DNA of 64,000 nt from Parcubacteria group bacterium GW2011_GWA1_40_21 (lineage in GTDB: Bacteria; Patescibacteriota; Minisyncoccia; Phycocordibacterales; GWA1-40-21). How positions within the stretch are numbered: position 1 is the stretch's first letter; each line of letters begins with the position of its first letter. The DNA is taken from the NCBI GenBank assembly GCA_000996205.1, contig LBYO01000001.1:3077-67076 (forward strand), written 5' to 3'. A program made the position numbers and the translations under genes. Of this stretch, positions 1 through 5,468 are shown piece after piece. The notes beneath the pieces are model-generated. The model saw only the letters and a list, made by a program, of their open reading frames with translations, had not been told where the DNA came from and made no database searches.

Positions 1-1214
1 GTGAGCTTGCCATGAGCAGGGTGAATCCCGACGAAAGTCGGGAGGAGGCCCGAACCGGTTAGCCGTGCAATACTATCGGATGACTTGTGGTAAGAAGTGA
101 AAAGCTAATCGAACTTGGTAATAGCTGGTTCTCTCCGAAATAGCTTTTGGGCTAGCGTCTGGATTACCTTCTGGGGGTAGAGCACTGGATGGTCTAAACA
201 GGGAGAAATCTCATTAGACCAATCAAACTCCGAATACCAGAAGTAAACTTCCAGGCAGTTAGACCGTGGGGGCTAAGCTCCATTGGTCAAAAGGGAAACA
301 GCCCGGATCTCAACTTAAGGTCCCTAAATCTATGCTAAGTACGCTTGAGGTGGTGGAATTTCACAGACAGTGAGGATGTTGGCTTAGAAGCAGCCATCAT
401 TTAAAGATAGCGTAACAGCTCACTCACTAAGAGATTCTGCGCCGCAGATAATCGGGGTTAAGCATAGTACCGAAATTGAGGGTTTGTGCGAAGCACAAAC
501 GAGTTAAAAGTCTTAAAGTCCTTAATGTCATTAAAGTAAGCACAGAAATGTATTTACTTTCGACTTTCGACTTTTTACTTTCGACTCGCTTGTGCTTCGC
601 ACAAGCGGTAGGAGAGTATTCTCATCGCGATGAAGCCAAAGGCGTGAGCCATGGTGGAGCGTTGAGAAGTAAGAATGTTGGCACAAGTAACCACAATGCG
701 GGTGAGAACCCCGCACGCCGAAAGACCAAGGTTTCCTTGGCGATGACAATCAGCCAAGGGTTAGTCGGGCCTAAGCGGATGGCGAAAGCCGCACGCGATG
801 GACACATGGTTAATATTCCATGACTTTTATGTATTGTGACGGGAGGACGGAGTCTAGTATGTTTTGCGCATTATTGGATTTGCGTTCGTGTCGTAAGGAG
901 GGCTTCCAGGAAAATCCGGAAGCGCGCCGCAAGGCAACTTCAAGCGAAGCGAAAATCCGCCGGTTCGCCGGTGGAAATGAGACAAAGCAGGCTCTCAAGA
1001 AAATTCCCTAAACTTAAATATGTAAAATCCGTACCGCAAACCGACACAGGTGGTCAGCTCGAGTAGAGCAAGGCGAACGAGTGAGAGGTCCCCAAGGAAC
1101 TCGGCAAAAAAGCAGCCGTAACTTCGGAATAAGGCTTTCCCTGGGCACTACTTTGTTTTTTAGTATTTGTAAATTATATTAGGGTTCAAAATTCAATTAA
1201 AAAGGAGATAATCT

Positions 1215-1418
1215 ATGGCTAAATTTCTTTTAAAGATGTCGGGTACAGATCAGAATGGAAAAACCATTGAAACACTTCGCACTGTTCACGGAGACCAAAA
1301 GGAAATTGATCGGGCAGCATGGGAGATTACACAATCCTGGATAAAAGAAGGTATCTGTAACATCCATGTTGTTGGGGTTGGGGAAGTTCTCCAATCTTTT
1401 GACTCAAGTCAAAATTGA
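1215..1418 (+). CDS. small hypothetical protein (67 aa) nested inside 23S variable/insert region, own SD (aaaaggag) and downstream hairpin
   Basis: ORF preceded 8 nt by aaaaggagat; followed by palindrome gatgtttccgcgaaaactttcgcggaaacatc; lies in ~400-nt insertion between cttcggaataaggc and gcaactgtttatcaaaaacacag. Confidence 0.3.
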   Translation: MAKFLLKMSGTDQNGKTIETLRTVHGDQKEIDRAAWEITQSWIKEGICNIHVVGVGEVLQSFDSSQN

Positions 1419-1730
1419 ATTTTCCCTGTGATGTTTCCGCGAAAACTTTCGCGGAAACATCACTCTAATATAGTTTGCAAGTGATAACTTAAAAATAAAG
1501 TAGTGCTCGGGGACGCAGCTAAAGTATCTCTGGCAACTGTTTATCAAAAACACAGCTCCCTGCGAACTCGTAAGAGGATGTATAGGGGGTGACACTTGAC
1601 CAATGCCAGAAGGTCAAATACCGACGGTGTTCAGCACTTATTTCTTAAAATATTTTTGAGAAATAAGTGCTGGATGCTGATTGGTATAAGCCCTGGTGAA
1701 TGTCGGCCGTAACTATAACGGTCCTAAGGT

Positions 1731-1953
1731 CCAGCACTTATTTTTTTAAAAAATAAGTGCTGGAGGACTGGGACTGTTATAGCCAGTAAAAAATAAACTG
1801 GGATAAACAAATTAAACACATAATCATTACATTTTAGAGCTACCTATCATGCCGTAATGCATGAATAGTCCATCGTGATCAACGAGAGACCAACGTCACG
1901 GACCCAAACTTGCAAAGTGGGTTAAGAGAGAGTCCTTCTTTAAGGAAGAGAAG
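1731..1953 (+). mobile_element. group I-like intron (ORF-less) in 23S at ggtcctaaggt|agcgaaattcc junction
   Basis: 223-nt insertion splitting a universally contiguous 23S segment; 5' exon ends in T, insert ends in G; begins with ccagcacttatt hairpin. Confidence 0.55.
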
Positions 1954-2523
1954 AGCGAAATTCCTTGTCGGGTAAGTTCCGACGCGCACGAATAGTGTAA
2001 TGACTGGAGAACTGTCTCGGGGGCTTGCTCGGTGAAAATACAGTACCGGTGAAGATGCCGGTTACCTGCAGCTAGACGAAAAGACCCTAGGAGCTTTACT
2101 ACAATTTTATATTGAGTGTATGTTTCAACTGCGTAGCGTAGACGGTAGACTTTGAAGTCTTGTTCTCGGATGAGATGGAGTCGTCGATGAAACACCGTTC
2201 TTTTGTGATATGCATTCTAATCCGCGCGGCAAAAACGAGCGGAGACAGTATATGATGGGTAGTTTTAGTGGGGCGCTATCCTCCCAAAAAGTAACGGAGG
2301 AGCCTATTAAGGTTGGCTAGGCGCGAATGGAAACCGTGCTGATAGTGTAATGGCACAAGCCAGCTTGACTGCGAGGCGTACTTGCCGAGCAGGTGCGAAA
2401 GCAGAGCATAGTGAACCGATGGTCCGCATTAGACGCGGCCAGAGATTATCGGACAAAAGCTACCCTAGGGATAACAGGCTGGTAGTGCCTAAGCGTCCAT
2501 AGCGACGGCACTGTTCGGCACCT

Positions 2524-3393: not shown

Positions 3394-3486
3394 CGATGTC
3401 GGCTCAACTTATCCTGGGGGTGTAGAAGCTCCCAAGGGTTTGGCTGTTCGCCAATTAAAAAGTTACGCGAGCTGGGTTCAGACCGT

Positions 3487-4064
3487 CCAGCACTTATTTT
3501 GCTACATAGACTACGTACACAAACAAAAGTATCAAATAATATTTTGATATGACAATTTGCTTTGTGTAGCAAAATAAGTGCTGGACAATCTGAATCCTCA
3601 GAGGACTTTTCGTCTATGAAAAAAGAAACCTAAACGCAATAATATTGCGTCGGTTAAATAGAAAACCAATCAAATCACGGCGGTCTTTTGTAGAAATACA
3701 AAATGTACAGAGCTGATTAATATCGGTGGAGTCCATATAAATGGATAATATCGAGGGAAGTTTATAGGCTTTATTGAGGATGTTCTTTTAAGGGCGGTGT
3801 AGCTCAAGAGTATCGTGTGTTGAAAGACGAAAGTCGAGGATACACACTTTAGCGAGAACGCTTTCTTGAATTATTACAAAGTTCAGATAAAAGAGGATAC
3901 AGATAAAAATCCTGTCATCGTCCGCCAACATTGCCAAGAAAATTATTTTCTTGGCTCCTCAGTAAAGTCTATAAATACCCGTAGAGACTAAACATCAGAT
4001 GTCTTAACTCGAAAGAGAAAGACAAAGTCATAGTCCGATGCGTTTAGCAATAAACGATATCATG
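3487..4064 (+). mobile_element. group I-like intron (ORF-less) in 23S at gttcagaccgt|cgtgagacagg junction
   Basis: 578-nt insertion in conserved 23S segment; begins with long ccagcacttatt...aataagtgctgg hairpin; ends in G. Confidence 0.55.
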
Positions 4065-4127
4065 CGTGAGACAGGTTGGTCTCCTATCTGCTGCAGGCGT
4101 TGATTCTTGAGAAGATTTGTTCCTAGT

Positions 4128-4996
4128 AAGTAATTGCTACTTTCATGAGCAATCATGATTGAAAATGCTGCTCATAACGGTGAAGCCTTCATATGATTCA
4201 GGTCTTAGAATTGTAATACTTGAGGTCCTTGTGTTATAATTCGCTTGAGGACCAGAATCCTCTTTAAGGTAATACCGTGGGAAGTCGATCTAAAATTGCA
4301 AAAGAATTTGATAGAGCATACATCGCGGGTTTTCTTGATGGTGATGGGAGCTTAATGCTTCAGATCAAAAAACGAAAAGATGGCAATATCGGAATACGAT
4401 TTATGCCAACAATTTGTTTCTATCAAGATACCCGCCATGAGAAAACTTTGTACTGGATACAAGAAGTTTTGGGCATTGGATATCTTTCCAAAAGGAATGA
4501 TGGAATGACCGAACTTCGTATAAATGGTTTCAGACAGGTGAGGAATATTCTGAACTTGTTATCGCCATATATACGATTTAAGAAACTTCAAAGCGACGCG
4601 TTAAAAAACGCATGTGAAATACTTTCAGATACAAAGTTTAAAATGTTAAGCAAAGAGAAGTTAAAAGAACTCGTTAATTACATTCTGGTAATTCAAAGTG
4701 AAAACTATATTACCAAGAAAAAGAAAACGCGAGAGGAACTTCTTGCTATGTTAGGTTTGACCCCGTAACGACTCATGTTGAAAGATACATGGACTCATGC
4801 GTTGAGGAATCCAGCCTCAGTTTGCAAAAACTTGAGCTGGACAGCTCGTATGGGTAAAATGCAGCCCCCCTCTGCTCGCAAGCAGAGGGGGAAGGTATAG
4901 TCTACACTCCTAGAAATAGGGGATAATATTCGTAGCCATTCGTATCATTCGAATAATTCGTATATTCGTATTGATTACGAGCGAAGCGAGTATGTG
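4128..4996 (+). mobile_element. group I-like intron in 23S (tcctagt|acgagaggaccgg site) carrying LAGLIDADG ORF
   Basis: 869-nt insertion between cctagta and cgagaggaccgg blocks; 5' exon ends in T, intron ends in G. Confidence 0.7.
4277..4768 (+). CDS. LAGLIDADG-family homing endonuclease (intron-encoded), GTG start
   Basis: Motif IAGFLDGDGSL; inside 23S intron; preceded by aataccgtgggaagtc. Confidence 0.8.
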   Translation: MGSRSKIAKEFDRAYIAGFLDGDGSLMLQIKKRKDGNIGIRFMPTICFYQDTRHEKTLYWIQEVLGIGYLSKRNDGMTELRINGFRQVRNILNLLSPYIRFKKLQSDALKNACEILSDTKFKMLSKEKLKELVNYILVIQSENYITKKKKTREELLAMLGLTP

Positions 4997-5468
4997 ACGA
5001 GAGGACCGGAATGAACTAACCTCTGGTCTATCTGCTGTCCCGCCAGGGGCACCGCAGAGTAGCTAAGTTGGGAATGGATAACCTCTGAAAGCATCTAAGA
5101 GGGAAGCCAACTTCAAGATTAGGAATCGTTTGAGACCCCTAAGAGATTATTAGGTTGATAGGCTCTAGGTGTACGCGCAGTAATGCGTTTAGCCGAGGAG
5201 TACTAATCCGTCGATTCTTATTAGGAAATTTAGAAACCAGCCCGAAACATTTTCGCCGCAAGGCGAGGTGTTGGGCAAATTGTTTTAACCTGTTATATGA
5301 GATTAAACATCTCATTTAATAAAACTTACAAACTCGGCGCTTTTTTTCGTTGCAAGCTCCGTTTGCTCCCGCGCAGTATAATAATACAGCTTGGTCTCAA
5401 TACTCGCTTGCGCCTCGAACTGCATCCAAGTTTGTAAGTTTTATGAAATTAGTCCTTTGATTTTTGTG

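Follow-up and report, generated by a model that had tools for sequence, protein, structure and literature searches.

Layout of the interrupted 23S rRNA gene

The window analysed here is a stretch of 64,000 nucleotides (nt) from Parcubacteria group bacterium GW2011_GWA1_40_21, a member of the candidate phyla radiation (CPR). Its positions 1–5227 hold the 3′ three-quarters of a single 23S ribosomal RNA (rRNA) gene that is interrupted by four insertions. We placed the exons by blastn against E. coli 23S rRNA (reference gene L001:1777–4680), whose numbering is given as Ec. Insertions are lettered A–D in the 23S and E–F in the 16S gene, and each site is named L (23S) or S (16S) followed by its E. 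coli position. The exons, introns, endonuclease genes, helix insertions and 5S gene described below all lie on the forward strand. Exon 1 (1–1730, partial gene, ~Ec682–1931; Rfam and blastn, with 1688–1730 matching Ec1889–1931) contains three helix insertions that are not introns and is followed by intron A (1731–1953, L1931, 223 nt), a group I-derived mini-intron that has no open reading frame (ORF) and lacks the P4–P6 helices. Exon 2 (1954–2523, Ec1932–2500) precedes intron B (2524–3393, L2500, 870 nt), a group I intron identified with the Rfam model RF00028 and a guide sequence search. After exon 3 (3394–3486, Ec2501–2593; the blastn match is 3394–3487 to Ec2501–2594) comes intron C (3487–4064, L2593, 578 nt), a group I intron without an ORF identified by the same two means. 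Exon 4 comprises only 63 nt (4065–4127, Ec2594–2656), and intron D (4128–4996, L2656, 869 nt), for which we combined RF00028 with RNAalifold on 30 orthologs, separates it from exon 5 (4997–5227, Ec2657 to ~2904). The latter matched E. coli in two parts (4997–5099 to Ec2657–2759 and 5154–5207 to Ec2831–2884). Downstream of the 23S gene lies the 5S rRNA gene (5581–5688; Rfam, 77.3 bits), and the 16S gene carries two further group I introns, E (18752–19420, S793; RF00028, 50.9 bits; no recognisable endonuclease) and F (20202–21149, S1498; RF00028, 33.9 bits).

The breaks that a preliminary description had proposed for the 23S gene (1730/1954, 2523/3394, 3486/4065 and 4127/4997) proved exact. When the four insertions were removed in silico, which also supports exons 4 and 5, blastn returned a single high-scoring segment pair from Ec1770 to Ec2759 that spans all four junctions; the unspliced form of the same region yielded six pieces rather than a continuous, gap-free 23S alignment. 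Likewise as described, a T (U in the RNA) precedes and a G terminates all six insertions, four in the 23S and two in the 16S gene. Without their introns, the exon junctions read GGCACCT^CGATGTCGG at L2500 and GTTCCTAGT^ACGAGAGGACC at L2656 (the caret marks the insertion site), the latter falling within the sarcin–ricin loop, AGU^ACGAGAGG.

Standard rRNA annotation mis-calls this gene. In the Rfam scan, the large-subunit (LSU) rRNA match began at window position 1 and the small-subunit match at 17880, and cmscan squeezed LSU model positions 725–2925 onto window 1–2596. That the LSU alignment was forced to stop at 2596 signals large insertions, and routine annotation would cut the gene by ~2.6 kb, losing the exons of the peptidyl-transferase centre and the sarcin–ricin loop.

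The attribution to CPR bacteria, made before the source of the DNA was known, was right: SecD, encoded at 12533–13867, is identical to KKR54141.1 of Parcubacteria group bacterium GW2011_GWA1_40_21, whose genome belongs to the CPR data set of Brown et al. 2015, and a survey of 348 CPR 23S genes found insertions in 82% of them, and as many as 16 in a single gene (Tsurumaki et al. 2024; PMC11270868). The sequence is metagenomic, and the 16S gene (from 17880, with no 23S gene after it) is unlinked from the 23S–5S unit (1–5688), both of which would suit an assembly chimera or a pseudogene. We regard such an artefact as extremely improbable, because six contigs that encode the 163-amino-acid (aa) protein of intron D (4277–4768) and come from separate assemblies and samples of Rifle groundwater are 99.97–100% identical to the window across the region, the exons are conserved and colinear with E. 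coli, and dozens of other genomes show the identical architecture.

Very probably, the gene carries four independent, site-specific group I-type introns (at 1931, 2500, 2593 and 2656) together with three insertions of the intervening-sequence (IVS) type at the tips of helices 45, 63 and 68 (H45, H63 and H68). The earlier count of four 23S introns holds for the junctions and for the group I nature of L2500, L2593 and L2656, but L1931 is not a canonical group I intron. The standard two-step transesterification initiated by guanosine would remove B, C and D and religate their exons, and C is an ORF-less member of a widespread L2593 family. A belongs to a large L1931 mini-intron family that has kept the guide, P2, P3, P7, P8 and a terminal helix and has lost P4–P6.

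Group I cores, endonucleases and descent of introns B, C and D

The group I core is complete in B, C and D, and the group I nature claimed for them was borne out by RF00028 matches, guide sequences that place a U·G pair at the splice site, the Q, R and S elements, a terminal G and, at L2656, covariation among 30 orthologs. Intron C aligns to the whole RF00028 model (P2, P3, J3/4, P4, P5, P4′, P6, R, P3′, P8, S and P9). It starts with a 5′ hairpin (~3487–3585), followed by AAUCUGAAUCC (3589–3599), which is complementary to the upstream exon; downstream lie P4 (3723–3729), the Q element AAUAUCGAGGGAAG (3747–3760), a loop L6 of ~200 nt without an ORF, R (3981–3990), P3′ (3994–3998), P8 (4001–4023), S (4024–4036), P9 (4040–4056) and the terminal G (4064). 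In intron B, the sequence and the Rfam alignment together gave P2 (2561–2578), P4 and P4′ (2600–2604/2656–2660), P5 (2609–2614/2646–2651), P6 (2662–2669/3225–3230), the R element GUAGAGACU (3231–3239), two extra hairpins and then P3′, P8 (~3290–3345), S (3346–3358), P9 (3361–3379) and the terminal G (3393). Intron D consists of P2 (4143–4158), P3 (4168–4171/4861–4864), P4 (4177–4182/4273–4278), P5 (4186–4189/4266–4269), P6 (4279–4286/4759–4764), P6a (4287–4292/4752–4757), R (4765–4773), P7 (4770–4773/4899–4902), P7.1 (4774–4791), P7.2 (4793–4855), P8 (4866–4891), S (4891–4903), P9 (4907–4922) and the terminal G (4996).

Guides were sought as sequences that start with G opposite the last U of the exon. 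For B there was a single 7-bp candidate, GGGUGCC (2554–2560), and for C we found GCGGUCU (3680–3686, 7 bp); both place a U·G pair at the splice site and directly precede the P2 hairpin. The guide of F is GCGAC (20220–20224, 5 bp). In D, a P1 hairpin UAGU^AA-GUAA-UUGCUA with its internal guide sequence (IGS) at 4136–4139 and U·G at the splice site can be read from the sequence; its 6 bp, four with the exon (GCUA/UAGU) and two on the intron side, are conserved in 31 orthologs. An RNAalifold pairing of the D guide GCUA with UAGU of the S element was discarded, as it arose artificially because the alignment omitted the exon. As a separate observation, ~20 same-site L2593 orthologs carry a conserved CACGGCGG, and the L2593 introns of ~20 loci share (C)AGUCUGAA(C/U)CC, complementary to exon positions −13 to −4 (window 3589–3599). 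This element is distinct from the guide GCGG, which lies ~80 nt further downstream and pairs with −4 to −1.

The D family comprises 38 GTDB loci that encode a relative of the D endonuclease (61–93% identity), all of them Patescibacteria (Nomura-, Yonath-, Zambryski-, Taylor-, Vogel- and Adlerbacteria, plus metagenome-assembled genomes (MAGs) labelled Saccharibacteria). In 38/38 the 3′ exon starts at Ec2657, and YUAGU^ marks the 5′ border. RNAalifold on 30 ORF-trimmed sequences found two to five pair types in each of P2, P3, P5, P6a, P7.1, P7.2, P8 and P9, and P4 (ACGGUG/UACCGU), P6 (GGG-AA-GUC/GAC-CCC) and P7 (GACU/AGUC) were invariant. The P5 extension of the L2656 introns (4241–4254) also holds CUUGAGGACCAGAA, invariant in all 31 orthologs and identical at 10/11 positions to GAGGACCGGAA of the 3′ exon (5000–5010), which begins four bases past the insertion site. 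Extra hairpins between P7 and P3′ are present in B, D and F and absent in C and E.

Several points speak against this assignment. The RF00028 scores of B (41.6 bits, 3154–3379), C (25.2 bits, 3661–4057) and D (18.4 bits, 4547–4923), with E values of 1e-8, 1e-3 and 0.12 in a 2.5-kb search, all fall under the Rfam gathering threshold of 50 bits, which intron E reaches and intron F does not; the low scores of B, C and D are largely due to their large ORF or loop insertions. D pairs with its exon through only 4 bp of P1, and the invariant P4, P6 and P7 of its family provide no evidence from covariation. The assignment of B, D and F to a subgroup IA-like class via P7.1/P7.2 under the Michel–Westhof scheme is tentative, and for every intron we infer splicing from sequence.

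Both LAGLIDADG ORFs noted earlier in the 23S introns are supported by Pfam. That of intron B (2648–3226, 192 aa; LAGLIDADG_2, PF03161, 143 bits), for which the same 192-aa gene is called on the identical contigs, has two motifs, LLGDG and FMDDG. That of intron D (4277–4768, 163 aa; LAGLIDADG_1, PF00961, 48.9 bits) has one, IAGFLDGDGS, and the acidic motif residues are intact in both (LLGDG and FMDDG; FLDGDG). Among structures in the PDB, the nearest to the B protein are 6x1j and I-SceI (E values 2e-16 to 1.5e-14), and the D protein aligns end-to-end with I-CreI-derived, I-MsoI and I-CvuI chains (1e-24 to 1e-11). Two motifs in one chain suggest that the B enzyme is a monomer of the I-SceI type. 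The D enzyme would be a homodimer, given its single motif in 163 aa, a reading that fits its pseudo-palindromic target GTTCCTAGT^ACGAGAGGAC. I-CreI (Chlamydomonas chloroplast 23S, L2593), I-MsoI and I-CvuI share with the D enzyme a LAGFVDGDGS-type motif, a length of ~160 aa and a single motif, which likewise points to a homodimer on a pseudo-palindromic 23S target; in contrast to I-CreI, the target of D is the sarcin–ricin loop at L2656 rather than L2593, and the window's own L2593 intron is ORF-less. The B enzyme aligns over ~175–185 aa with I-SceI of the yeast mitochondrial omega intron and with 6x1j, with two motifs in one chain, and like omega, B is a group I intron in large-subunit rRNA near the peptidyl-transferase centre; it differs in its bacterial host and in its position at L2500, the omega/I-SceI site being L2449. 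The third endonuclease gene, in intron F, is again of the LAGLIDADG_2 type (20300–20947; PF03161, 131 bits), with ATG 20300 as its true start.

The endonuclease ORFs occupy loop L6 and extend into the ribozyme core on both sides, so that the gene is fused with the core at both ends, starting in P5/P4′ and stopping in P6′/R. In B, the ATG lies within the P5 3′ strand and the UGA stop overlaps the P6 3′ strand, and the D ORF begins with a GTG inside P4′ and ends with a UAA inside the R element, its first codons (GGA AGU CGA UCU AA) pairing with its last (UUA GGU UUG ACC CC) to form P6/P6a. Although protein identity among 31 D orthologs falls to 61%, all of them keep AATACCGTGGGAAGTC and CCCGTAACGACT unchanged, a pattern that fits a dual constraint on RNA and protein. 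Each enzyme would be expected to cleave, at its own site, 23S alleles that lack the intron and thereby to spread the intron by homing. Alleles without the L1931, L2500 or L2593 intron exist in related genomes, and cleavage of the intron-less site has been shown biochemically for another CPR enzyme, I-ShaI. No remnants of endonuclease genes turned up when the ORF-less introns were searched by tblastn with the three endonucleases.

The introns also contain a few further sequence features. The top sigma-70-like match within 1–5800 lies in intron D (4211–4240; TTGTAA-18-TATAAT with an upstream TG), 37 nt before the endonuclease start, and a TGnTATAAT-like string occurs in L5 of B, D and F, 7 nt before the endonuclease ATG in B and F. 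These strings could be internal promoters or belong to leaderless messenger RNAs; the same string is a conserved junction of the P5 extension. An internal promoter for the endonuclease genes was set aside as speculation, as promoter-like sites were fewer than expected from shuffled sequence and the string is a conserved junction of the D family. In the 5′ part of intron E, an 86-aa ORF (18809–19069) with a strong AAGGAGG upstream had no Pfam, NCBIfam or PHROG family and no match in 38 related loci, and the P4–P5 region of the same intron (19160–19195) resembles the T-arm and acceptor end of a transfer RNA (tRNA), GGGTTCGATTCCCGTTGCCTCCACCA.

The preliminary description had derived a single proliferating intron lineage from two shared motifs. 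Both motifs exist: the hairpin followed by GAAGATATAGTCC is found at 3290–3358, 4861–4910 (where it reads GGTATAGTCT, with a different last base), 19255–19313 and 21058–21123, and the context aataccg(t/a)gggaag at the endonuclease starts at 2654–2669, 4271–4287 and 20308–20323. The hairpin with GAAGAUAUAGUCC, however, is P8 plus the universal S element of group I introns, as printed in the RF00028 consensus, and CCCGUAGAGACU is the R element. AAUACCG(U/A)GGGAAG (aataccgNgggaag) corresponds to the Q element, in which UACCG, the P4 3′ strand, pairs with CGGUG ~95 nt upstream in D, and GGG-AA-GUC, the P6 5′ strand, pairs with GAC-CCC directly before R; the ORFs share this P4′/P6 context at their start because they sit in L6. 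Such motifs mark group I introns generally rather than one lineage, and an argument from shared motifs to common descent fails for ribozyme cores.

That the six introns of both rRNA genes are copies of one lineage that recently spread within the genome is very improbable. B, D and F carry a near-identical Q/P6 string, AAUACCGNGGGAAG, B, E and F have a similar P8 base and S element, GAGGGGUGAAGAUAUAGUCCGA, and occasional ectopic transposition between sites has been noted (Tsurumaki et al. 2024). Yet in pairwise blast the six introns matched one another over only 14–66 nt confined to core elements, whereas B and its L2500 counterpart in another genome (L026) align over ~800 nt (67%), similar matches link C and A to introns at their own sites elsewhere, and the D endonuclease has its 61–93% identical relatives at the same L2656 site in 38 genomes. 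The B and F endonucleases, both LAGLIDADG_2, are just 34% identical and that of D belongs to a different Pfam family; C and E lack the extra P7–P3′ hairpins of B, D and F, and A lacks P4–P6. With similarity between same-site introns far above that within the genome, the idea of one proliferating lineage fails. Presence also varies by site: the L1931 intron is absent in L038 and L042, the L2593 intron in L015, L016, L033, L038, L044 and L045, and the L2500 intron in most loci. The introns thus appear to be separate site-specific homing lineages without recent proliferation within the genome, as was concluded for CPR rRNA insertions from endonuclease trees, in which the single-domain enzymes group by site (PMC11270868).

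The L1931 mini-intron family

Intron A does not qualify as the standard group I intron for which 1731–1953 had been taken. Searched alone, it had no RF00028 match even at E = 10, and against Rfam as a whole it gave only chance, microRNA-like matches on its hairpin. A 19.4-bit RF00028 match (1637–1950) was discarded, since it borrowed the upstream H68 hairpin. A group I-like layout can nevertheless be followed from end to end: a 5′ hairpin (1731–1763), an invariant GGGACU (1770–1775), the IGS GCUACCU (1839–1845), of which ACCU pairs with AGGU of the exon, P2 (1847–1864) with a GUAA loop, P3 (1873–1878/1896–1901), an R-like GAGAGACCA (1884–1892), P7 (1888–1890/1932–1934), P8 (1902–1922), an S-like UAAGAGAGAGUCC (1923–1935) and a terminal helix (1935–1939/1949–1953) that includes the last G. 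Two earlier readings of A were dropped: a tandem duplication of two R/S-like modules, after comparison with orthologs, and a P1 between AGGACU and GGUCCU of the exon, as AGGACU is not conserved and GCUACCU is the guide.

Relatives of A were found in eight GTDB loci and in 80 metagenome loci, the latter via the pattern GTCCTAAGGT-N(24-54)-ACTGGGAC. They share a variable 5′ hairpin, (A)GGACUGGGACNGUUAUAG, an A-rich spacer, the invariant GCUACCU, a GNRA-capped hairpin, AGUCC, a stem around GAGAGAC(C/U)A, a further hairpin, GAAGAUAGAGUCC and the terminal helix with the last G. Two long L1931 introns (L027 and L034) carry GCCUUAG or ACCUUA where the short ones have GCUACCU, and then continue into a normal core and a LAGLIDADG gene; this homologous position identifies GCUACCU as the guide sequence. 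Three short members (L054, L066 and L093) have 66 extra nt exactly between the P3 5′ strand and the R element, and these make up J3/4, P4, P5, P4′ and P6; the L054 intron scores 42.6 bits on RF00028 with P4–P6 so assigned. Intron A and 22 other short members have nothing at this position. That relatives hold P4–P6 exactly at the gap argues that intron A is a group I derivative from which P4–P6 has been deleted.

The remaining helices show compensatory changes among 24 L1931 sequences, in 6/6 pairs of P2, 5/6 of P3, 4/5 of P8 and 4/5 of the terminal helix. None of 500 shuffles reached the observed covariation score, and controls with slid pairings were 32–38% paired compared with 82%. P7 has three invariant pairs. 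The covariation shows that the reduced RNA is under selection and not decaying. We sampled 57 L1931 introns with this family's 5′ end from GTDB genomes and metagenomes; 23 of them measure ≤265 nt and lack P4–P6, and a further 11, which are longer, lack the P4–P6 sequence signature that we used. On this basis we put forward, tentatively and with more doubt than confidence, that the L1931 insertion represents a natural intron family, large and conserved, that derives from group I and functions with neither P4–P6 nor the U·G wobble.

This proposal has evidence against it in intron A itself, which fails the Rfam test and is without P4–P6, whose splice-site pair is apparently U–A and not U·G (the guide GCUACCU being invariant), and in whose subfamily two of the five P7 pairs are mismatched, although they are paired in another subfamily. 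A may not self-splice at all. The same features, namely the missing P4–P6 and U·G wobble, the weakened P7 and the absent RF00028 match, would be expected if A were never removed and stayed in the mature 23S rRNA as an expansion. Position 1931 lies at a helix junction on the subunit surface, which would suit retention, and the L1931 intron of Simkania negevensis is said to be retained, as Everett and colleagues reportedly found in 1999. We nevertheless consider retention unlikely. The family keeps an exon-complementary guide, a G–C/A–U/C–G core of P7, the terminal G and covarying P3 and P8 helices, all of which selection for catalysis would maintain, and Brown et al. are cited as having found the rRNA insertions of CPR bacteria absent from transcripts.

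We found no account of a P4–P6-less L1931 family in CPR bacteria in the literature searched. The closest parallels are the degenerate small group I introns of fungal and lichen ribosomal DNA (Phialophora, PMC3160393; mycobionts, PMC8527467), which, like A, are shortened and have lost parts of the core. Those introns are eukaryotic and nuclear, and are 56–81 nt long or variously degenerate, whereas the CPR L1931 introns measure ~190–265 nt, lack precisely P4–P6, retain P2, P3, P7 and P8 with covariation and are widespread in bacteria.

Helix insertions, neighbouring genes and significance

The three helix insertions in exon 1, placed by folding and alignment, had been overlooked in the preliminary description. 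At 482–607, a near-perfect hairpin of 126 nt replaces helix 45, as seen by alignment to E. coli helix 45 (minimum free energy of 470–615, −59 kcal/mol); at 1138–1512, an insertion of 375 nt with a closing stem of ~45 bp extends helix 63; and at 1631–1673, the tip of helix 68 bears a 43-nt palindromic extension with the arms TCAGCACTTATTT and AAATAAGTGCTGG. Helix 45 is a classical site of IVSs processed by RNase III, so the H45 element has both the site and the long stem of an IVS, whereas the H63 element has the stem at a different helix. The H45 element resembles the helix 25/45 IVSs of Salmonella, Leptospira, Campylobacter and other bacteria in its long stem replacing helix 45; compared with these, the H63 element is much larger, and the 67-aa ORF that it holds (1215–1418) is not a member of the 23S_rRNA_IVP family. 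This ORF has AAGGAG upstream and a perfect 16-bp hairpin downstream (1430–1467), and it is called as a gene on a public contig. It had no Pfam, NCBIfam or PHROG match and no match in 38 related loci, and among 5.8 billion proteins its sole homolog was a 99% variant of itself. We treat both this ORF and the 86-aa ORF of intron E as unsupported.

The long near-perfect stems of H45 and H63, at or near known IVS sites, the expectation of this type in CPR bacteria (PMC11270868) and the start of intron A with a perfect 13–14 bp hairpin, together with its failure on the group I model, raise the question of whether the insertions as a whole are IVSs, excised by RNase III without religation to leave the 23S rRNA in fragments, instead of introns that are spliced. 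For the four introns this is improbable: B, C and D sit in single-stranded or tightly packed centres (the peptidyl-transferase ring at 2500, helix 93 at 2593 and the sarcin–ricin loop at 2656) and carry complete ribozyme cores with guides matching their exons. A break in the sarcin–ricin loop is, moreover, what toxins of the ricin and sarcin type exploit.

Two sets of repeats connect hairpins within the window. The 13-nt palindrome arms CCAGCACTTATTT and AAATAAGTGCTGG cap three unrelated hairpins, namely the helix 68 tip (1631–1673) and the 5′ hairpins of the L1931 (1731–1763) and L2593 (~3487–3585) introns, and are confined to these three places within the 64 kb. A Minisyncoccia MAG has the same palindrome in an L2504 intron, close to the intron's 3′ end (L009 2712–2750), and orthologous hairpins in other genomes differ from it in sequence. 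Possible explanations are gene conversion, mobility of the hairpin, or a site for binding or processing that the hairpins have in common. The H45 hairpin and the first 16S hairpin insertion (18075–18165) have common A/T-rich repeats (GTTAAAAGTCT..TAAAGTC.. / ..GACTTT..), and the second 16S hairpin insertion (19720–19870) contains related ATAAAGT repeats, which suggests one family of IVS-like hairpins in both rRNA genes.

Other observations concern the surroundings of the rRNA genes. Between 23S and 5S, a tRNA-like gene (5470–5544) was called tRNA-Ile with the unusual anticodon AAT by ARAGORN; it stays below threshold on the Rfam tRNA model, and its sole Rfam match is a weak one to tRNA-Sec (33.6 bits). 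A tRNA-Ile(GAT) gene (21446–21520) lies 3′ of the 16S gene and is followed by a 61-nt partial copy of its own 3′ part (21565–21625). The 16S 3′ end past intron F (21150–21200) reads GCTGCTCGTGGATTATTTC rather than GGATCACCTCCTTA and contains no CCUCC anti-Shine–Dalgarno sequence; CACCTCCT was found once in the window, far away at 40826. A Shine–Dalgarno-like motif is present upstream of only 7/33 long ORFs, compared with a background of 11%.

As originally stated, the finding is already known: it is a rediscovery in a genome of the original data set, at sites catalogued by Tsurumaki et al. 2024 (PMC11270868). In their survey, insertions are concentrated in the gene's 3′ part, around the peptidyl-transferase centre, 45% fit the Rfam group I model, LAGLIDADG_1 genes dominate at 1917, 1931, 1952, 2593, 2604 and 2657, and short insertions occur at known IVS sites; Brown et al. 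2015 is cited there as the source both of the discovery and of the observation that transcripts lack the insertions. The window shares the organism group, sites 1931, 2593 and 2657, the 3′ clustering and the short insertions at IVS sites, and we see no essential difference from that survey for the finding in its original form, which confirms a documented hallmark of CPR bacteria and adds little. The text of PMC11270868 does not contain the P4–P6-less structure of the short L1931 introns, the fusion of ORF ends into P4′/P6/R or the shared palindrome.

The worthwhile lead is the conserved family of P4–P6-less L1931 mini-introns. P4–P6 counts as the scaffold on which group I ribozymes fold. If A is excised and its exons are ligated, this may occur alone, with a protein, or with P4–P6 supplied in trans by another group I intron of the precursor, and any of these three routes, if true, would make intron A a minimal group I ribozyme that occurs in nature. 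A naturally widespread variant that lacks P4–P6, next to complete group I introns on one and the same transcript, would be a direct test case for minimal or trans-assisted catalysis.

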